Part shown: positions 31,033 through 64,000 of the stretch, in pieces
Layout of the letters: each line of letters begins with the position of its first letter
Numbering within the stretch: position 1 is the stretch's first letter
Assembly (NCBI GenBank): GCA_964457225.1
Contig: CAYWEM010000001.1
Location: 78,012 to 142,011, forward strand
Origin: an uncultured Clostridia bacterium
GTDB lineage: Bacteria > Acidobacteriota > Aminicenantia > UBA2199
DNA length: 64,000 nt
Reading direction: 5' to 3'
The notes under the pieces: model-generated
The model's input: only the letters and a program-made list of their open reading frames with translations
Databases searched by the model: none
What the model was told of the DNA's origin: nothing
Position numbers and translations under genes: made by a program

Positions 31033-32334
31033 ATGCATTTACCCGACATACTGGTAGTCGACGACGATGAAAACCTCAATTACGCCATCGGCGAAACCCT
31101 GAAACGCAAGGACTACCTGGTCGATCAGGCCTATTCCCTGAGTGAAGCCCGGGAAAAGATTAACCAAAGGGCTTATCCGATGGTGATAACCGATGTCCGC
31201 ATGCCCGGGGGCAGCGGTATCAGCCTGGTGTCCGAGATCAAGAAGCGTTACCCGGCCAGCGCGGTGATAGTCATCACCGCCTACGGCAAGGTCGAGGATG
31301 CCGTGACCGCCCTGAAGCACGGGGCTGAAGACTACATCCTGAAACCTTTCCCGGCTGAAAACATCCTGGGCCTGGTTGAAAAGTTCTTCCCGGCTCATTT
31401 TCTACCGGCCGCCGGCCCGGATTTCCTGACCGCCGACCCGGCCATGAACGCCTTGCTGGAAAAAGCGCGCCGGGTGGCGCCGAGCAACGCCGCCGTTCTG
31501 ATCAGCGGTGAAAGCGGCGCCGGCAAGGAAGTGCTGGCCCGCTACATTCACAACGGCAGCCGGCGGCGGGAAAACGCCTTCCTGGCCATGAACTGCGCGG
31601 CCATCCCGGAAAACCTGCTGGAGAGTGAATTGTTCGGTTACGAAAAGGGCGCCTTTACCGGGGCCGACAAGTTCAAACCGGGCAAGTTCGAACTGGCCGA
31701 CGGCGGCACCCTGGTGCTGGACGAAATCGGAGACATGCCCCTGCACCTGCAGGCCAAGATACTCCGGGTCATCCAGGAAAAAGAGATCGACCGCCTGGGC
31801 GGGCGCAAGCCGCAGCCGGTCGATGTCCGGCTGGTTTCCCTGACCAACCAGGACATTCCGGCCAGGATCATGGAAAAATCGTTTCGCGAGGACCTGTATT
31901 TCAGGCTGAACGTGGTTGAATTACTGATCCCGCCCCTGCGGGAAAGACCGGCCGACATCAGTCTGCTGGCCGGTCGATTCTGCCAACTCTATGGATTGGA
32001 AACGAAAAGGCCCGGGCTGAAGCTGGCCCCCGACGCCGAGCGAAAACTCCAGGATCATTCCTGGCCGGGCAATGTCCGCGAATTGCAGAATACGATCCAG
32101 AGAGCGGTTATATTCAGCAACGGCGACAGTATCGGCGCCGCTGACATTGAGTTCCGGGCCGCCTCCCCCGGCGCCGTTAAAACCGGGCTGATGACCGTGG
32201 CTGAAATGGAAAAAGACCTCATCCTGCAAACCCTGGAAAAGGTGAACAACCGCACCCGGGCCGCCGAGGTACTGGGCATATCGCCGCGCACCCTGCGCAA
32301 CAAGCTCAGGGAATACAACCTGTCCGAAGAATAG
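31033..32334 (+). CDS. Sigma-54-dependent response regulator (NtrC family): receiver + AAA+ sigma-54 activation domain + Fis-type HTH
   Basis: Receiver ILVVDDDENL..VITDVRMPGGSG. Walker A GESGAGKEV. GAFTGA motif. C-terminal HTH AAEVLGISPRTLRNKLREY. TAG stop. Confidence 0.85.
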   Translation: MHLPDILVVDDDENLNYAIGETLKRKDYLVDQAYSLSEAREKINQRAYPMVITDVRMPGGSGISLVSEIKKRYPASAVIVITAYGKVEDAVTALKHGAEDYILKPFPAENILGLVEKFFPAHFLPAAGPDFLTADPAMNALLEKARRVAPSNAAVLISGESGAGKEVLARYIHNGSRRRENAFLAMNCAAIPENLLESELFGYEKGAFTGADKFKPGKFELADGGTLVLDEIGDMPLHLQAKILRVIQEKEIDRLGGRKPQPVDVRLVSLTNQDIPARIMEKSFREDLYFRLNVVELLIPPLRERPADISLLAGRFCQLYGLETKRPGLKLAPDAERKLQDHSWPGNVRELQNTIQRAVIFSNGDSIGAADIEFRAASPGAVKTGLMTVAEMEKDLILQTLEKVNNRTRAAEVLGISPRTLRNKLREYNLSEE

Positions 32335-32416
32335 CCGCTCCCCCGCCGCTAAAATCCACCACCTAATTTCTGCAATTGTTCTGAAGAGCAATATAAGGGT
32401 TGAGTTTTACCTGAGT

Positions 32417-32594
32417 GAAAGGGTGAATCAACGCTCACCACTACGGTGCAGACCGACGTTAAGCCAGGCTGTACTAACATGACCAACTCGCTTCGCTCAG
32501 ACAGTGGTCATGTTACCCTGAAGGGCACGTCCAGCCTGGCTTTGTCGGTTCCCTGCACCTTCGTTTGACGTTCGCTTTTGCTTCACCCTTTCCC
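32417..32594 (-). repeat. Copy A1 of the ~177-nt structured palindromic element (inverted relative to copies A3/A4)
   Basis: Reverse complement is 99% identical to 48783-48959. Lies intergenic between ntrC-like and hslV. Confidence 0.85.
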
Positions 32595-32673
32595 TTGCCC
32601 CATATTTTTTGGTGGGGAATCATGGGCCGGACGTTCATTTGACTAGCCCGGGCAAAAGGAATAAAATCAAGCC

Positions 32674-33210
32674 ATGAATGCAAGTATCAAAGGAACAACC
32701 GTTCTCTGCGTCCGCCGCAACGGCAGGGTGGCCATGGGCTCCGACGGCCAGGTGACATTGCAGAACACGATCATCAAGCACCGGGCGCGCAAGATCAGGC
32801 GTCTATACCAGAACCGGGTCCTGGCCGGATTCGCCGGCTCAACTTCAGACGCGTTTTCCCTGTTCCAGCGTTTCGAATCAAAGCTGGAAGAGTACAGCGG
32901 CAACATCTCCCGCGCCGCCATCGAGCTGTCCAAGGAATGGCGCACCGACAAGATCCTGCGCCGTCTTGAAGCCATGCTGATCGTGGCCAACGAGGAAAAA
33001 TCCTACCTCCTGTCCGGCTCGGGTGACGTGATAGAACCGGACGACGATGTCCTGGCCATCGGCTCGGGAGGTCCCATGGCCATGGCCGCGGCCCTGGCCC
33101 TGCTGAAGCACAGCGACCTGGACCCGGCCGAAATCACGGCCAAGTCGCTGGAAATCGCGGCCGGAATCTGCATTTACACCAACGATTCATTCTGCATCGA
33201 GGAACTCTGA
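32674..33210 (+). CDS. hslV: ATP-dependent protease subunit HslV
   Basis: TTVLCVRRNGRVAMGSDGQVTL...GSGG family signature. Note the 7-aa N-terminal extension (MNASIKG) before the catalytic Thr. Confidence 0.85.
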   Translation: MNASIKGTTVLCVRRNGRVAMGSDGQVTLQNTIIKHRARKIRRLYQNRVLAGFAGSTSDAFSLFQRFESKLEEYSGNISRAAIELSKEWRTDKILRRLEAMLIVANEEKSYLLSGSGDVIEPDDDVLAIGSGGPMAMAAALALLKHSDLDPAEITAKSLEIAAGICIYTNDSFCIEEL

Positions 33211-34590
33211 ATGGAAAACATCGCCCCGTCCCCTGACAACCTGACCCCCAGGGAAATCGTCGCCGAACTCGACAAGTACATCATCGGCCAGAATGCGGCC
33301 AAGAAAGCCGTGGCCGTGGCCCTGCGCAACCGTTTCCGCCGCCAGCGCCTGCCCAGGGAAATCGCCGATGACATAATCCCCAAGAACATCCTGATGATCG
33401 GTCCGACCGGGGTTGGCAAAACTGAAATCGCCCGGCGCCTGGCCCGGCTGACCAGGTCTCCTTTCATCAAGGTTGAAGCTTCCAAGTTCACCGAAGTCGG
33501 CTATGTCGGCCGTGACGTTGAATCGATAATCCGGGACCTGGTGCGGATTGCCATTGACCAGACCAAGATGGACAAAATGGCGGAAAACGTCGAAAAAGCC
33601 AGGAGAAACGTGGAAGAAAGACTCTTGAACGTGCTCCTGCCGCCGGCCAAGAGAAACATCAGCGAAAGCACGCCGTCCGAAACAGAGCCGACCCAGGAAT
33701 CAGCTCTCGATACCAGGGAAAAAATGCGCAAAATGCTGCGTGAGGGCAAGCTGGATGAACGCCAGGTGGAAATCGAAGTCCGGGCCAACCAGTTCGCCCC
33801 GCTGGAAATCTTCTCTTCCTCCGGAGTCGAGGAAATAGGCATCACCATCGGCGAGATGATGCCCAATATCTTCGGCGGCATGAAAACCCGCAAGCGCCGC
33901 ATGAGCGTGGCCGAGGCGGCCGAATACCTGTTCAACGAGGAGCAGAACAAACTGCTCGACATGGATGATATCGCCAAGACGGCCATCCAGCAGACCGAGC
34001 AGATGGGCATAGTCTTTCTCGATGAAATAGACAAGATAGCCGGCCGGGAAACGACCAGCCAGGGACCGATGGTTTCCCGGGAGGGAGTCCAGCGCGACCT
34101 GCTGCCCATAATCGAGGGCACCACGGTCAACACCAAGCACGGCATGGTCAAAACAGATCATATCCTCTTCATCGGCGCCGGCGCCTTTCACGTCAGCAAG
34201 CCGGCGGACCTGATCCCCGAACTCCAGGGACGCTTCCCGATCAGGGTCGAGCTCGATTCCCTGAGCAAGCAGGATTTCATGCGCATCCTGGTTGAGCCGA
34301 AAAACGCCCTGACCAAGCAATACAGTCACCTGCTGGGCACTGAAGGTCTGGAAGTCAATTTCAGCGAAGACGCCATCGAGGAAATCGCCCTGCTGGCCGA
34401 AAAAATCAACACCGGCAACGAAAACATCGGAGCCCGCCGACTGCACACCATCATGGAAAAAGCGCTGGAAGAGATATCCTTCGACGCATCCAACGTCGAT
34501 CACGGCCGGGTGAACATAGACCGTGAATACATTCGCTCCCGGGTTGAAAGCATCGCCGGAGACAGTGATTTGAGTAAATACATACTTTAG
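33211..34590 (+). CDS. hslU: ATP-dependent protease ATPase subunit HslU
   Basis: ILMIGPTGVGKTEIARRLA (Walker A), FIKVEASKFTEVGYVG, IVFLDEIDKI (Walker B). Adjacent to hslV. Confidence 0.9.
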   Translation: MENIAPSPDNLTPREIVAELDKYIIGQNAAKKAVAVALRNRFRRQRLPREIADDIIPKNILMIGPTGVGKTEIARRLARLTRSPFIKVEASKFTEVGYVGRDVESIIRDLVRIAIDQTKMDKMAENVEKARRNVEERLLNVLLPPAKRNISESTPSETEPTQESALDTREKMRKMLREGKLDERQVEIEVRANQFAPLEIFSSSGVEEIGITIGEMMPNIFGGMKTRKRRMSVAEAAEYLFNEEQNKLLDMDDIAKTAIQQTEQMGIVFLDEIDKIAGRETTSQGPMVSREGVQRDLLPIIEGTTVNTKHGMVKTDHILFIGAGAFHVSKPADLIPELQGRFPIRVELDSLSKQDFMRILVEPKNALTKQYSHLLGTEGLEVNFSEDAIEEIALLAEKINTGNENIGARRLHTIMEKALEEISFDASNVDHGRVNIDREYIRSRVESIAGDSDLSKYIL

Positions 34591-41687: not shown

Positions 41688-43688
41688 ATGTCCGTCAAAC
41701 GCAAGATCCTGGTAACCGCCGCCCTGCCCTACGCCAACGGTGACATCCACCTCGGCCACCTGGTGGAATACCTGCAGACCGATTTCTGGGTGCGCTTCCA
41801 GAAAATGCGCGGCCACGAATGCCTCTACATCTGCGCCGACGACACCCACGGCACCCCGGTCATGGTCAGCGCCCGGGCCCGCGGAATCAGTCCCGAAGAG
41901 CTCATCGCCGAAAAGAATCTCGACCACCGGCGCGATTTCGCCGCTTTTGAAATCGAGTTCGACAACTATTACAGCACTCACAGCCCGGAAAACCAGGCCC
42001 TGGCCGAGGAATTCTTCGCCGCCATGCAGCGCGACGGCCACATCGCAGTCAGGCCGGTCAAGCAGTTTTTCTGCTCCCGGGACCGGATGTTCCTGCCCGA
42101 CCGCTTCGTAACCGGGACCTGCCCCCGCTGCCGGGCCGAGGGCCAGTACGGAGATTCCTGCGACAAGTGCGGGGCTGCCTATTCCCCGGCCGAGCTGGAG
42201 AGCCCGGCCTGTTCGATCTGCGGCACTGTCCCGGTGGAGCGCGAGAGTGATCATCTCTTTTTCCGCCTGGAAAACTTCCGCGCCTTCCTGCAGGAATGGG
42301 TCAGCCTGCACACCCCGCGCGAGGTGGCCAACAAGCTCGGAGAGTGGTTCGGCGAGGAACTGCGCGACTGGGATATCTCCCGCGACGCCCCCTATTTCGG
42401 CATCCCGATTCCCGGCTATCCGGACAAGTTTTTCTACGTCTGGCTGGATGCCCCGCTGGGCTATATCTCGTCCACCATGGACTGGGCCCGGCGCAGTCAG
42501 CGCGATTTCCGCGAATTCTGGCATTCCGGGGAAGCCGAGCTCTACCATTTCATCGGCAAGGACATCGTCTACTTTCACACCCTGTTCTGGCCGGCCATGC
42601 TGAAAGCGGCCGGGTATAAGACCCCTGACCAGGTTTTCGTGCACGGTTTTCTGACCATCAACGGCGAGAAGATGAGCAAGTCCAAGGGCACCTTCATCAA
42701 GGCCGCCACCTATCTTGAACAGCTCGACCCGCTTTACCTCCGTTACTATTACGCCTGCAAGCTCGGCGCCAACCTCGACGACATCGACCTCAACCTGCAG
42801 GACTTCGTCAACAAGGTAAATGCCGAGCTGATCGGCAAGATCTCCAACCTGGCCTCGCGCAGTCTGCAGATGGTCGACCGCGCCGGCGGCGTGCTGGGCC
42901 GCCTGACCCCGGCCGGCCGGGAACTGCTGGCGGCCTCGGGGGAAAAAGCCGGCCAGGTGGCCGAGCTCTACGAGAAACGGGAATTCTCCAAGGCCCTGGT
43001 CGAGATCCGCGGCCTGGCCGAGGCGGCCAACCGCTATTTCGACGAACAGAAGCCCTGGGAAAAGATCAAGGCCGACCCGGAACAGGGCCTGGCCGTGCTG
43101 ACCGACGTCATCAACCTCTTCCGCCGGCTGGTGATCATGCTCAAGCCCATTCTGCCCTCCTGGGCCGGCCTGGTGGAAGAAATACTGCGCGAAAAGCCCT
43201 ACACCTGGGATTCACTCGGAGAAGAGCTTGAATCCGTCCCGGTCGGTCCCTTCAGGATGCTGGCCGCCAGGATAGAAAAGGAGAAAGTCAACATGATAAT
43301 CGAGCAAAGCCAGGAAAAACCGGCCGAACAACAACCGGCCGTGGAACACGAAGCCCTCTGCCCGACCGTCTCCTTCGCTGATTTCCAGAAAATCGACCTG
43401 CGGGTAGCCCGGGTGCTGGAAGCGGAGATCATCCCCGAGGCCGACAAACTGCTTCGCCTGAAAGTGGACATCGGCCTGGAGACCCGCTCGATCATCGCCG
43501 GCATCAGGCAGGCCTACAAAGCGGAAGACCTGGTCGGCAAACTCATCGTAGTGGCGGCCAACCTGGAGCCGCGGAAGATGAAGTTCGGCCTCTCCGAAGG
43601 CATGCTGCTGGCCGCCGGCCCCGGCGGAGCCGAGGTCTTCGTGCTGAGCCCGGACAGCGGCGCCCGGCCCGGCCAGCGCATCCATTAA
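41688..43688 (+). CDS. metG: Methionine--tRNA ligase with C-terminal EMAP-like tRNA-binding domain
   Basis: HIGH motif ALPYANGDIHLGHL. KMSKS motif. Zn knuckle CPRCRAEGQYGDSCDKCG. C-terminal FQKIDLRVARVLEAE. Confidence 0.9.
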   Translation: MSVKRKILVTAALPYANGDIHLGHLVEYLQTDFWVRFQKMRGHECLYICADDTHGTPVMVSARARGISPEELIAEKNLDHRRDFAAFEIEFDNYYSTHSPENQALAEEFFAAMQRDGHIAVRPVKQFFCSRDRMFLPDRFVTGTCPRCRAEGQYGDSCDKCGAAYSPAELESPACSICGTVPVERESDHLFFRLENFRAFLQEWVSLHTPREVANKLGEWFGEELRDWDISRDAPYFGIPIPGYPDKFFYVWLDAPLGYISSTMDWARRSQRDFREFWHSGEAELYHFIGKDIVYFHTLFWPAMLKAAGYKTPDQVFVHGFLTINGEKMSKSKGTFIKAATYLEQLDPLYLRYYYACKLGANLDDIDLNLQDFVNKVNAELIGKISNLASRSLQMVDRAGGVLGRLTPAGRELLAASGEKAGQVAELYEKREFSKALVEIRGLAEAANRYFDEQKPWEKIKADPEQGLAVLTDVINLFRRLVIMLKPILPSWAGLVEEILREKPYTWDSLGEELESVPVGPFRMLAARIEKEKVNMIIEQSQEKPAEQQPAVEHEALCPTVSFADFQKIDLRVARVLEAEIIPEADKLLRLKVDIGLETRSIIAGIRQAYKAEDLVGKLIVVAANLEPRKMKFGLSEGMLLAAGPGGAEVFVLSPDSGARPGQRIH

Positions 43689-43692
43689 CAGC

Positions 43693-43882
43693 CATCGGTG
43701 CCGTATCTTGCATTATCACATTTTCAACCGACCATAGCGGCGGATTTACTGTCCCAGGGGCCATCGGTGCCGTATCTTGCATTATCACATTTTCAAGCGA
43801 CCATAGCGGCGGATTTACTGTCCCAAGGGTAAACGAGGGTTGCCGCGGGGCCCGGTCCTTCAGAAAATACATATCTTCAAGC
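43693..43882 (+). repeat. Repeat B, copies B1a (partial, 43693-43758) and B1b (full, 43762-43882) in tandem immediately after the metG stop
   Basis: gccatcggtgccgtatcttgcattatcacattttcaa(g/c)cgaccatagcggcggatttactgtccca occurs twice head-to-tail. The second copy extends ...agggtaaacgagggttgccgcggggcccggtccttcagaaaatacatatcttcaa. Confidence 0.85.
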
Positions 43883-43967
43883 ACCCTCCCCCGCCCAACC
43901 CCCTGGCTTTTCTTTTTTTTCTGGTTTTTGTAATAATCATAACCAGCAGAGTCAAAAAAAGGAGGTT

Positions 43968-45428: not shown

Positions 45429-45567
45429 ATCAGCAATTTTACCGCCGGCCAGGGCCCAGATTCCCGTTTCCGGCATTAAGACCGGTGGCCAACCGGTTCA
45501 GCTCTGCCGGATAAGGTTTTTTTCAAGTCTCGGCCATCACCCTGGTTCCATACCTGTTTTTATGCCA

Positions 45568-45698
45568 GGGGAAGGGTGAAGCAAAAGCGAACGCTCCCCC
45601 TTCGGGGACAAGAAACGAAGGTGCAGGGAACCGACAAAGATGGGCTGGACGTGCCCATCAGGGTAACATGACCACTGTCTGAGCGAAGCGAGTTGGTC
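45568..45698 (+). repeat. Copy A2: left arm + loop of the palindromic element only, truncated at the junction with repeat B2
   Basis: Matches positions 1-~125 of copy A3, with the small hairpin ctcccccttcggggacaag replacing tcaa. Ends ...agttggtca, then repeat B begins. Confidence 0.8.
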
Positions 45699-45704
45699 AA
45701 GGGG

Positions 45705-45824
45705 CCATCGGTGCCGTATCTTGCATTATCACATTTTCAAGCGACCATAGCGGCGGATTTACTGTCCCAAGGGTAAACGAGGGTTGCCGCGGGGCCCGGT
45801 CCTTCAGAAAATACATATCTTCAA
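45705..45824 (+). repeat. Repeat B copy B2 (direct orientation relative to B1b)
   Basis: Near-identical to 43762-43882 over ~120 nt. Confidence 0.85.
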
Positions 45825-45844
45825 ACTCTGTCCCCTCCCACACA

Positions 45845-48333: not shown

Positions 48334-48711
48334 TTACATGTCCTTGACCCGGCGCTCGAAGAGTTGCCGGTAGAGGGAAACGGCCAGGGCGCCGAACAGG
48401 ACGATCAGGTACAGGAATCTATGGCTGAGCGGATCGACCGGCCATGCCCCCGACCAGGCCCCGAATTCAACCAGGAACACGGCGAAAATCGTGGCCGTGC
48501 TGATGTAAAATACCCTGAGCCTGAGGCAATTCGTATCTATCAGCACGGTGGCGGCGCTCCAGGAGACGGCGGCGCTGGCTGAAAGCAGGGCGTTCAAGAG
48601 GTTGCTTTTCAGCCCGTTGGCCCTGAAAACCAGCAAATAGAGGGCCAGGCAAACCAGGCCGAGCAAAACCGGTAAAAAGGCTGTTTTTCTCATCTGAACC
48701 AGAGCAATCAT
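48334..48711 (-). CDS. Small membrane protein (hypothetical)
   Basis: Three to four TM segments. Start moved to MIALVQM (RBS GGAAGGAAAG), because the ORF-track 5' extension runs into repeat copy A3. Confidence 0.4.
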   Translation of the reverse strand: MIALVQMRKTAFLPVLLGLVCLALYLLVFRANGLKSNLLNALLSASAAVSWSAATVLIDTNCLRLRVFYISTATIFAVFLVEFGAWSGAWPVDPLSHRFLYLIVLFGALAVSLYRQLFERRVKDM

Positions 48712-48782
48712 ATTCTTTCCTTCCGGGCAAGTCAATATGCACCACGGCACCTCTGATTCCCCGTTTAAATCTTTGAAAAAGG

Positions 48783-48959
48783 GAAAGGGTGAAGCAAAAG
48801 CGAACGTCAAACGAAGGTGCAGGGAACCGACAAAGCCAGGCTGGACGTGCCCTTCAGGGTAACATGACCACTGTCTGAGCGAAGCGAGTTGGTCATGTTA
48901 GTACAGCCTGGCTTTACGTCGGTCTGCACCGTAGTGGTGAGCGTTGATTCACCCTTTCC
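48783..48959 (+). repeat. Copy A3 of the ~177-nt structured palindromic element (reference copy)
   Basis: Terminal inverted repeats gaaagggtgaa / ttcaccctttc. Internal complementary segments aacatgacca/tggtcatgtt, agccaggct/agcctggct, ggtgcag/ctgcacc, accgac/gtcggt. Confidence 0.85.
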
Positions 48960-49123
48960 TTCAGGTAATACACACACCCAATAATGCTCTTAATAACAAT
49001 TACAGAAATCAGCTAGGGAATCCTGACGGCGGCGGGCCGTCTTGACAAGGTAGTTATTTCTATAATATAGAATTAAAGTAATCGTTTAAGTCACCTTAAC
49101 CGAAATCCATCCGGAGGTGTGTC

Positions 49124-55201: not shown

Positions 55202-55302
55202 GCAACCTCCCCGGTCCGGCCGACGCCGGGACCGGCCTTACAATTAGCACGGCGACCTCCCCCTGTCAACCGCGGGCCTGATCATATCTGATCATTGGGC
55301 CA

Positions 55303-55479
55303 GGGAAAGGGTGAAGTAAAAGCGAACGGAAACGAAGGTGCAGGGAACCGACAAAGCCGGGCTGGACGTGCCCTTCAGGGTAACATGACCACTGTCTGAG
55401 CGCAGCGAGTTGGTCATGTTAGTACAGCCTGGCTTTACGTCGGTCTGCACCGTTGTGGTGAGCGTTGATTCACCCTTTC
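55303..55479 (+). repeat. Copy A4 of the ~177-nt structured palindromic element
   Basis: 97% identical to A3 (5 substitutions). Lies intergenic between the divergent galM and GH97 genes. Confidence 0.85.
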
Positions 55480-55642
55480 ACACTCAGGAAAGACAATAAT
55501 CTTAGCAGTGTATTTCAAACAATTCCGGCAATCAGGTAGTGTGTTTGGGGGGTCACCGGCACTGGACAGCGGGATCTTCCCTGTTATATCATTGCACCTG
55601 CCGATGAAAACCGAAATCAAGCGATTCCCGCGGAGAATAACC

Positions 55643-61789: not shown

Positions 61790-62065
61790 ATGCCGAAGCT
61801 GTTTAAAACCGACATCGCCCCGGAAGCCGATCTGAAGGTATTCGTTTGCGATATTCGTTTCGATGCCGACCTGGTCGTTTTCGAAACCAGCGACGCCTGG
61901 GCGGCGACTGAAGCCCCCATCTGGTACTACACCGGGATCCGCGGCGAAGCGGACAAGATCGTTTACTTCACTGATCAGAAGTTTGAGGCCGACCTGCTGA
62001 TCTATAAAACCGATGTCCAATCGGACGCCGGCTGGCTGAACAACGCCAAGTCCCACCTGCTGTAG
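61790..62065 (+). CDS. Small internally repeated protein (91 aa), unknown function
   Basis: Two to three copies of the ADL-K-V-F-V-x-D-x-x-F-x-ADL-V-x-F-x-T-D module. Strong promoter and RBS. Confidence 0.4.
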   Translation: MPKLFKTDIAPEADLKVFVCDIRFDADLVVFETSDAWAATEAPIWYYTGIRGEADKIVYFTDQKFEADLLIYKTDVQSDAGWLNNAKSHLL

Positions 62066-62174
62066 CCTGCCGGGAAAAACCTTGCCTTGAACTTGACTTC
62101 AGTTGATTCTCACCAGGATCAGCCTATTCCATCTCTTGCCCGCGGATGGGTATTCCCCGACACTCCGCTGTAAT

Positions 62175-63320
62175 TCAGTTTACGCCAGGGTCTCCAGAAA
62201 AATCGAGCTCTTTCAGGAAATCATTCAGGGCAATCATGCTCACTCCATCCCTGGATTTGGGGCGGTGCAGGTTTAATACCGCCTGCAGGGCCCTGGCTTC
62301 AGGAAGCATGCCGTGAAAATGGAAAATGCTCTTGGCAAATGAATCGTCACTTTCCTTGACTTCGACCAGTAAAGCGGGTTTGTGGTCAATAACCGCCAGG
62401 AAATCAACCTCGCGCTGTTGCTTATCCCTGAGGTAATGCAGTGCCACCCGGCTGCCGGTGGTGTCCTCGAGGTAATGCAGTTCCTTGAGCAGTTCCAGGG
62501 CTACCAGGTTCTCCAGGCGGGCGCCTTTTTCACCCTGCACCGCACCGCAATCAAAAAAAAAGTACTTGGTTTCCTTCAGGATACTGCGGGCGATATGCCG
62601 GGAATAAGGTCTGACCGGGAAAATGACATACAGGTTTTCCAGGATCTGCAGCCAGTGTTTGACCGTGTGAATGGAAACCTGCAGATCGTTGGCCAGCGAG
62701 GAAAACGATACGGATTTTCCGACCCGGCCTTTAAGCATTTCGATCAGCAATTCGATTGATTTCACGTCCCTGACCCGCTCCAGGTCAAGCAGGTCCTGCC
62801 TGAGGATAGTGTCCAGGTGAGTTCTGCGCCAGCGCTTTGCATAATTCTCGCTTCCCTTCAAAAAAGGCTCGGGAAAACCGCCGATGGTAACAAGCTTTTC
62901 CAGGATTTCAGTCTCCGGGCCGCAGTCCCGGGCCAGGCATTCCTTCAAGGAAAGCGGATGCAGGCGGTACGAAAAAAAACGACCGGCCAGTGAATCACCG
63001 CCCCGCCTGGCGATGTCGAGCCGAGCCGAACCGGTGACCAGGATGGCCGGTTTTACACCCTCGGTATCGTAAACTCCCTTGATCCATGATTTCCATTTTT
63101 TCATCTTGTGCAATTCGTCGAAAACAACCAGTTCCACATCTCGTCGCCATTCCTGCCGGTTTATTAAAACCCGGTCCGGAGCGGAATCATAATTGAGATA
63201 AGCGCAGGAACTGCACAACTGCCTGGCCAGGGTTGTTTTGCCGACCTGGCGCGGCCCGGAGAGCAGTACCATCTTTTCGGGCAAATCTTTCAAAATGTCA
63301 TTTTTCAGGTATCTTTCCAT
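62175..63320 (-). CDS. AAA+ ATPase with C-terminal DUF4143 domain
   Basis: Walker A LLSGPRQVGKTTLA. Walker B LVVFDELH. Typical ATPase-DUF4143 architecture. Confidence 0.75.
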   Translation of the reverse strand: MERYLKNDILKDLPEKMVLLSGPRQVGKTTLARQLCSSCAYLNYDSAPDRVLINRQEWRRDVELVVFDELHKMKKWKSWIKGVYDTEGVKPAILVTGSARLDIARRGGDSLAGRFFSYRLHPLSLKECLARDCGPETEILEKLVTIGGFPEPFLKGSENYAKRWRRTHLDTILRQDLLDLERVRDVKSIELLIEMLKGRVGKSVSFSSLANDLQVSIHTVKHWLQILENLYVIFPVRPYSRHIARSILKETKYFFFDCGAVQGEKGARLENLVALELLKELHYLEDTTGSRVALHYLRDKQQREVDFLAVIDHKPALLVEVKESDDSFAKSIFHFHGMLPEARALQAVLNLHRPKSRDGVSMIALNDFLKELDFSGDPGVN

Positions 63321-63465
63321 GTGACTATTATGAAGTAATATTCATAATTGTCAAGACTATTATGAAGTTTGCTTCACTTTGGTCAACACGAGATGCAACT
63401 CAAGTCTTGCCGGGTCGCACCCGGCCCTGGCCGGCCGGGTCCGGGTTTTCCCGGTCAAAGCCCCA

Positions 63466-63972
63466 TCAGCCGGGGTTGTTGCGGATGTATTCCCGCAGGT
63501 GTTTTAATTCCCGGTCATTTCGGATGACGTGTTCGTAATAATTGCGTTGCCATAATTTCGCACCGGGGGTTTGATTCAATTCATTGATGCGTTTGGTGAC
63601 GGCGGATTTAAATGATCGAACAATCGTTGGTACGGAACCGGAGACCGGTCGGCCGAATCGTTCCAACGTAGGGGCACGGCGCGCCGTGCCCCTACCATCG
63701 TTGACAATCAAAATACCATGAAAATGGTTGGGCATGACCACCCATTCGTCCAATTCAATTTCATTCCGCATTACGCCGGATTTTCTCCATTCGTCGGCGA
63801 CAATTATTCCGTCATCATTCAATACCATTTCCCCGCCAATGACATCACCGAATATGGATTCCCGGTTCCGGGTGCAAATGGTCAGGAAATACGCGCCAAC
63901 CCGCGAATAATCATATCCCTTCAGGCGGATGGAACGTCGCCTGTGTATTTCCGGGTCGAATTTCTTTGCCAT
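63466..63972 (-). mobile_element. REP-associated tyrosine transposase (RAYT; IS200/IS605-like Y1 HUH transposase)
   Basis: HUH motif MPNHFHGIL. Catalytic Tyr region KLWQRNYYEHVIRND. ~165-aa size. GC-rich nested palindromes (63408-63455) on its 3' flank. Confidence 0.75.
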
Positions 63973-64000
63973 ATTTCAGAGCCCGGCGTGTTGTCAATTC

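Follow-up and report, generated by a model that had tools for sequence, protein, structure and literature searches.

The closest described relatives of the gene considered here are the TnpA_REP/RAYT proteins. In E. coli TnpA_REP (4ER8; Messing et al. 2012, PMC3479197), Y115 is the catalytic residue, the Tyr helix contributes N119 and H123 to the metal ligands, and loss of the autoinhibitory tail through a cut at residue 152 leaves the enzyme hyperactive. The GTAG guide is recognized in this protein by W94, Q95, E100, H101, and R104 (PMC6006769). Quentin et al. 2018 (PMC6006769) define TnpA_Y1 subclass 2.4, which is Bertels group 4, by the motifs NH[IFV]H, WQ, and YIxNNP. A REP lying in frame inside the gene is a trait unique to this subclass (PMC6006769), its double-foot palindrome ends with C[TC]AC on the 3′ side, and the supplement to the same paper gives the core GTAGGGGCACGGC...GCCGTGCCC for subclass 2.4 genes. 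By homology with the E. coli protein, a member of the family would bind a REP hairpin on single-stranded DNA, the 5′ GT[AG]G foot would be read by the WQ..EH..R residues, and cleavage near the foot would be carried out by the Tyr of the Y..NP helix together with a metal on the HUH histidines.

Here, we analyze one such gene within a stretch of 64,000 nucleotides, referred to as the window (Table 1). Our preferred interpretation, which we regard as quite likely, is that the locus holds an orphan copy of a subclass 2.4 TnpA_REP/RAYT gene with a premature stop, a recently disabled and non-proliferating relic that is unrelated to the 177-nt hairpins found elsewhere in the window. The kind of gene is already known, namely a subclass 2.4 RAYT that carries a REP within its coding sequence, encountered here as an orphan and in truncated form. 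Such genes are domesticated and encode HUH/tyrosine nuclease-ligases of single-stranded DNA.

Table 1. Positions of the RAYT gene, its motifs, its neighbor, and the hairpin repeats in the window
Feature	Position	Strand	Basis or remark
Truncated RAYT ORF	63466-63972	-	168 aa, ORF list
HUH motif N82-H83-F84-H85 (AAC CAT TTT CAT)	63718-63729	-	sequence; pairs with PEHMH (H59-M60-H61) of 4ER8
Perfect 28-nt double-foot REP palindrome GTAGGGGCACGGCGCGCCGTGCCCCTAC (GTAG...CTAC)	63668-63695	.	inside RAYT ORF
W motif WQRNYYEH (W141, Q142, E147, H148; then R151)	63529-63552	-	pairs with 4ER8 residues 92-104
Y motif YIRNNP	63472-63489	-	pairs with Y115-P120 of 4ER8; catalytic Y162 = TAC 63487-63489
Premature TGA, codon 169	63466-63468	-	alignment, read-through translation
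Former C-terminal coding tail WGFDRENPDPAGQGRVRPGKT and original stop (63403-63405)	63403-63465	-	read-through, alignment, tblastn
AAA_14/DUF4143 ATPase, downstream of RAYT	62175-63320	-	PADLOC candidate PDC-S01, E = 2e-52
Hairpin element copy	32415-32603	-	full
Hairpin element copy	45556-45700		truncated; 18-nt insertion at 45594-45611
Hairpin element copy	48769-48960		full
Hairpin element copy	55291-55481		full

Family placement and setting of the RAYT gene

The original prediction described a 168-aa protein of the RAYT/TnpA_REP type, and both the ORF and its identity have been borne out. The best model for the ORF by far was REP_Tyr_transpos of NCBIfam (NF047646), with a score of 69.3 bits that lies below the equivalog cut-off of 80 partly because the protein is truncated; the NCBIfam IS200 model (NF033573), whose cut-off is 55, gave 16.5 bits, and Pfam Y1_Tnp ('Transposase IS200 like') was matched at 31 bits over the C-terminal third only. 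The sole sequence match in the PDB was E. coli TnpA_REP, 4ER8, with WQRNYYEH aligned to residues 94-101 and Y162 to the catalytic Y115. An AlphaFold2 model of the 168-aa protein (pLDDT 74.7) places NHFH on strand E83-90 and Y162 in helix 153-165, and a Foldseek search of the PDB with this model ranked 4ER8 first (E = 3.8e-7, TM 0.58), followed by the ISDra2, IS200, and IS608 TnpA proteins (2XM3, 2F4F, 2VJV), all of the best 30 matches being TnpA_REP, ISDra2, IS200, or IS608. The Y...NP motif, the difference between the two NCBIfam scores, and the fold match to 4ER8 argue for assigning the product, as judged from its sequence, to the Y1 HUH proteins of the TnpA_REP/RAYT class.

The motifs themselves are well preserved. 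Across 20 aligned sequences there is no variation at N82, H83, Y162, I163, N166, or P167, and at least 90% share F84 and H85. The HUH motif had been correctly picked out at the outset (as NHFHGIL); WQRNYYEH, which had been taken for the Tyr-containing helix, is present but corresponds to the W motif, the catalytic Tyr being Y162 of YIRNNP. By homology with E. coli TnpA_REP, recognition of the GTAG foot would fall to residues of WQRNYYEH and the R151 that follows, and in an intact form of the protein Y162 and an HUH-bound metal would be expected to cut GTAG-footed hairpin DNA. NHFH, WQ, and YIRNNP reproduce the subclass 2.4 row in Table 1 of PMC6006769, and we assign the gene to this subclass (Bertels group 4) from its motifs, its in-gene REP, and the core of that REP.

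A single copy of the gene was found in the window by tblastn, and outside it more than 7980 homologues are 60-74% identical. The best matches are 72-74% identical, and the presence of Thermodesulfobacteriota as the named organisms among them suggests that the RAYT may have spread horizontally. The HslU protein encoded elsewhere in the window (33211-34590) is at most ~73% identical to its named relatives, which are Chrysiogenia, Aminicenantes, and Acidobacteria MAGs.

A second, independent contig from ENA (L001) continues the sequence for 539 nt past the window end and thereby gives a partial view of the 5′ flank past position 64000 that the original prediction had proposed to inspect; this flank contains a gene and is free of GT[AG]G palindromes. 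The upstream gene lies on the same strand, ends 150 nt ahead of the RAYT ATG, and has no Pfam or PADLOC match. The neighbors of the RAYT are this protein without a Pfam match and the downstream ATPase, and no tnpB was found at the locus. PADLOC assigned no family to the window RAYT or to two of its relatives. Two direct copies of the 13-mer CTTCATAATAGTC precede the ATPase gene within 63321-63390 and overlap the promoter-like sequences TTGACA-16-CATAAT (63354-63327) and TTGACC-16-CATAAT (63386-63359); the repeat region looks like an operator. The G+C fraction is 0.50-0.53 over 62000-64000, which spans DUF6150, the ATPase, and the RAYT, versus 0.55-0.65 in the preceding 6 kb, and this stretch of low G+C would fit a horizontally acquired islet.

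The premature stop and the former coding tail

The reading frame of the RAYT does not end naturally at position 63466. Read through the TGA, it continues as NNPG, stop, WGFDRENPDPAGQGRVRPGKT, stop, giving WGFDRENPD..., and is open for 21 codons. Homologues are mostly 180-220 aa in length, their Y motif being followed by NPxxWxxD(R/K)ENP, and W170 and D173, both beyond the stop, are invariant in all 19 of the 19 aligned homologues. When longer homologues were used as tblastn queries, their alignments crossed the TGA and reached 63418-63442, and none of ~88 full-length homologues ends before the conserved W. At the position of the stop the homologues have K, Q, or R, with CGA and AGA among the codons seen, each one substitution from TGA. 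The TGA is also found in L001, which matches the window at 587/587 positions of the overlap. Because the alignment, the tblastn searches, the ends of the homologues, and this contig all agree, we take the TGA to be a real nonsense mutation and the stretch 63403-63465 to be formerly coding.

The mutation, six residues after the catalytic Tyr, removes the rest of the Tyr helix and with it both W170 and D173, which are invariant. The E. coli TnpA_REP residue opposite W170 in the alignment is the metal ligand H123, and the window protein ends two residues past the equivalent of N119 and short of the equivalent of H123. The cut that makes the E. coli enzyme hyperactive, in comparison, is 37 residues past the Tyr. 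Because the stop precedes the H123 equivalent, unlike the E. coli cut at 152, the 168-aa protein is probably inactive; the intact HUH and Tyr motifs are a counterpoint to this conclusion.

We also considered that the 168-aa product is not a relic but a functional protein, perhaps a deregulated short form, or that the TGA is read through. The preservation of all catalytic motifs, the 21 open codons past the TGA, and the occurrence of the same allele in two assemblies are consistent with this alternative, as is the greater activity of E. coli TnpA_REP without its autoinhibitory C-terminus (PMC3479197), but a cut inside the Tyr helix and ahead of W170 is far harsher than the one at residue 152, and no homologue among the ~88 ends there. 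Read-through in particular is disfavored by the K, Q, or R of homologues at the stop position, where neither Cys nor Sec is seen. On balance, we consider a functional product unlikely and favor the interpretation of the gene as a recently disabled relic.

The nonsense mutation also bears on the GC-rich palindromes at 63408-63455, in which the original prediction saw REPs on the 3′ flank of the gene. Self-complementary stretches are indeed present there, but they fold at z = -1.9 and -2.2, near what is expected by chance (6 to 8 of 200 shuffles equaled them), their 12-mers recur nowhere else in the 64-kb window, and they lie in the read-through frame, where the palindrome CCGGGAAAACCCGG encodes R-E-N-P in the conserved DRENP tail. 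These stretches were therefore rejected as REPs. They were also rejected as an intrinsic terminator, as they have no T-run and gave no match on the strand of the gene. The palindromes are a remnant of the C-terminal coding tail and not extragenic in origin, and the apparent flanking REPs are an artifact of the nonsense mutation; for this window, the finding is mainly a correction.

A REP within the gene and the 177-nt hairpin elements

The palindrome that does resemble a REP lies inside the gene and was missed in the original prediction. The perfect 28-nt sequence GTAGGGGCACGGCGCGCCGTGCCCCTAC occurs once in the 64-kb window, was matched in none of 100 shuffles, and forms a hairpin of -16.8 kcal/mol (z = -5.6). 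It encodes in frame (G)RGTARRAPT, residues 94-103, between the HUH and Tyr motifs, and this surface loop is disordered in the AlphaFold2 model, where residues 95-106 have pLDDT <50. A double-foot palindrome of some kind is found inside the ORF in 66 of 90 homologous genes. Of 80 metagenomic relatives, 36 carry the palindrome of the window gene within their own gene, 16 of them exactly, and 10 have a further copy of the palindrome within 1 kb of the gene. In genes encoding GTARRAPT, the third codon positions in the palindrome have a majority base of 1.00 in six of seven codons; the majority-base means for third codon positions of other conserved motifs are 0.54-0.80. Because synonymous positions are frozen here, unlike in other conserved motifs, the palindrome is taken to be maintained as DNA.

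A scan for GTAGGGGCACGGCNNGCCGTGCCCCTAC in one genome per GTDB species identified at least 120 loci (L002-L121). Among the matches listed, the exact 26 specified bases GTAGGGGCACGGC..GCCGTGCCCCTAC were present in more than 10 bacterial phyla, and the phyla with GTAGGGGCACGGCNNGCCGTGCCCCTAC among those matches include Chloroflexota, Acidobacteriota, Planctomycetota, Cyanobacteria, Omnitrophota, candidate-phyla-radiation lineages, and Firmicutes. Among the matches listed, 120 of the 126 copies of GTAGGGGCACGGCNNGCCGTGCCCCTAC fall outside RAYT-like genes and just 6 within one, and one locus (L051) has the classic REP-RAYT-REP order. Viral contigs contained the REP in only 11 cases and a RAYT relative in one; the family is therefore not phage-borne.

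Within the 64-kb window, we found no degenerate copies of the in-gene REP elsewhere with up to three mismatches, its 10-mer half-site was not above shuffles, and no palindrome family with GT[AG]G feet was present in the flanks of the gene, including the upstream flank seen in L001, or in the rest of the 64 kb. No REP family is thus visibly proliferating in the 64.5 kb covered, which is part of a much larger genome.

The window does contain a family of 177-nt hairpin elements, which the original prediction connected to the RAYT as REPINs. Identity between full copies is 97-98% across the hairpin, which folds at -56.6 kcal/mol (z = -9.5). Its arms start with GAAA followed by GGGTGAAGC, and the foot is GAAA or GGAA on both arms, not GT[AG]G. 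The copies sit between ordinary chromosomal genes, and none adjoins the RAYT gene, the nearest being 8 kb away. The element is not a REP doublet because its ends are not small palindromes themselves, and no sequence similarity was found between it and the in-gene REP or the RAYT flanks. Blastn of the hairpin element, of a second repeat family described below, and of the RAYT 3′ flank against 208 loci (1.36 Mb) with RAYT relatives or the REP returned no match. Rfam gave no match at gathering thresholds over the whole window or at E <= 1 on one hairpin copy, and no tRNAs were found in the window.

These observations make it very unlikely that an active RAYT with flanking REP palindromes mobilizes the hairpin repeats of the window as REPINs. 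In favor of such a model, the gene belongs to the RAYT class, subclass 2.4 RAYTs may pair with long hairpin REPs of up to ~70 nt (PMC6006769), and the hairpin is strong. Further, a published long REP of subclass 2.4 from Anabaena cylindrica, GTAG followed by GGGTGAAGCA..., has after its foot the first 10 stem bases of the window element, GAAA followed by GGGTGAAGCA...; this 10-mer, however, occurs in only one REP of the PMC6006769 supplement, and a chance match is plausible. Against the model, the element has a GAAA/GGAA foot while the protein keeps its GTAG-reading residues, its ends lack the small palindromes of a doublet, no copy flanks the gene, and it is both unlike the in-gene REP and absent from the 1.36 Mb of RAYT and REP loci. 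The flank palindromes that the model calls upon are ex-coding, are unique in the window, and fold barely above shuffles, and the RAYT gene is itself truncated. At the level of sequence, the proposed link between element and RAYT is unsupported, and the hairpin family needs its own explanation.

Several features of the repeats may be recorded in that regard. The hairpin element stands within longer repeat units at 32333-32680 (minus strand), 45480-45700, 48700-49042, and 55220-55560, in which ~70 nt upstream and ~85 nt downstream of the hairpin core are homologous between copies at ~65-90% identity. No obvious target-site duplication was seen at these units, which may be a miniature transposable element or a family of small-RNA genes. 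The second repeat family, of 136 nt and 97% identity, is located at 43687-43891, where there is a 69-nt tandem duplication, and at 45700-45835, where the copy stands in place of the right arm of the truncated hairpin element.

Finally, that the gene encodes an ordinary IS200/IS605 transposase TnpA, as the Pfam Y1_Tnp match and the annotation of relatives as 'transposase' might imply, is hardly credible in view of a Y...NP rather than a Y...Q motif, the 16.5-bit NCBIfam IS200 score, the lack of a tnpB, a second window copy, or repeated ends at the locus, and the occurrence of relatives not as IS-like units but in operons with 4-nt overlaps to their neighbors. The placement in the RAYT class, which the original prediction would have abandoned had the protein grouped with IS200 TnpA and been flanked by tnpB or IS ends, is retained in what follows.

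Relatives in restriction-modification operons and comparison with known systems

Relatives of the window RAYT occur repeatedly in type I restriction-modification (R-M) operons, which house ~20% of the genes of this clade. Of 77 informative loci, 17 have an hsd gene no more than 3.5 kb away. Such R-M-embedded relatives are found at L122-L124, L126-L129, L130, L132, L147-L149, L156, L166, L172, and L175, and further at L180, L197, L201, L228-L231, L044, and L063. The commonest order is hsdM-hsdS-RAYT-hsdR, seen in Meiothermus ruber and several metagenomic contigs, with overlapping stop and start codons; Desulfoferrobacter suflitae has hsdM-RAYT-hsdS-hsdR, also with overlapping stop and start codons. 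Immediately upstream of the relatives, HsdS was encoded in 9 and N6_Mtase (HsdM-type methylase) in 4 of 67 cases scanned, and immediately downstream there were 7 HsdR, 3 HsdS, and 1 N6_Mtase in 62 cases scanned. On a rough neighbor-joining tree of the family, members embedded in R-M operons are dispersed. Further close relatives adjoin other defense or toxin-antitoxin genes; their settings include a position after Wadjet JetC/JetD (L225-L227), an arrangement of SIR2_2 and a DUF87 (HerA-like) ATPase followed by RAYT-hsdR (L228-L229), and an RND efflux operon beside ParD (L224), and other RAYT relatives occur in housekeeping contexts.

Three of the R-M loci (L126, L230, and L231) represent one hsdM-hsdS-RAYT-hsdR locus in related strains, the sole difference between them being one target-recognition domain of hsdS (~2.1-3.0 kb into the locus), with RAYT and hsdR 97-98% identical. 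We do not regard the pairing of identical RAYTs with differing hsdS genes as special, as it amounts to ordinary variation of the target-recognition domain at one locus.

An association of RAYTs with R-M systems is absent from PMC6006769, PMC5581495, a 2025 R-M review, and the other literature searched, which likewise yielded no account of HUH or IS200 genes in R-M loci. We speculate, tentatively and with more doubt than conviction, that this RAYT clade is not only a REP 'transposase' but recurs as an accessory gene built into the operons of type I R-M and other defense loci. In such a role, it might modulate restriction or serve as a back-up nuclease for single-stranded DNA. There are no hsd genes in the 64-kb window; if this interpretation were true, the window copy, which lies beside the PDC-S01 candidate defense ATPase, would be a decayed stray of an R-M or defense module. 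If the association holds, the position in R-M operons could be a clue to what these domesticated transposases, long an enigma, do for their hosts. The nearest parallel is PrrC in the EcoprrI type IC locus, in that the RAYT of the relatives is likewise an unrelated nuclease gene between hsdS and hsdR. PrrC is an anticodon nuclease without homology to HUH proteins, making the likeness an analogy of position, and the window copy differs from both PrrC and the R-M-embedded relatives in standing outside any hsd operon.

Comparison to the better-known HUH proteins brings out what is distinctive at this locus. The IS200, IS608, and ISDra2 TnpA proteins (subclass 1.1) have the same HUH/Tyr fold, but their Y...Q motif, multiple copies, subterminal hairpins, and frequent tnpB have no counterpart at the window locus. 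E. coli TnpA_REP is closer, as the window protein has its Y1 HUH fold and the HUH, WQ..EH..R, and Y...NP motifs of the two can be aligned, and its presumed ligand would likewise be a GTAG-footed REP hairpin on single-stranded DNA. The two proteins are nevertheless only ~22% identical, and the E. coli protein belongs to subclass 2.2, has no in-gene REP, and carries a ~25-aa autoinhibitory tail with E161, whereas nothing is left of the window protein beyond the equivalent of V121.

The closest correspondence is with subclass 2.4, or RAYT group 4 (PMC6006769; PMC5581495). The window copy departs from this group in stopping prematurely six residues past the Tyr, in scoring below the NCBIfam equivalog cut-off, and in having no REP within 1 kb of the gene, whereas flanking REPs accompany the large majority of subclass 2.4 members (PMC6006769). 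It agrees with the group in its NH[IFV]H, WQ, and YIxNNP motifs, in a variable insertion between the HUH and Tyr motifs that is formed by the in-frame in-gene REP, in a double-foot palindrome with GTAG feet whose stem has three G-C pairs at its base, and in a patchy spread over many phyla. The window locus illustrates three properties of subclass 2.4, a cognate REP placed within the reading frame, the conservation of this REP as DNA, and the spread of its exact 26 specified bases across more than 10 phyla.
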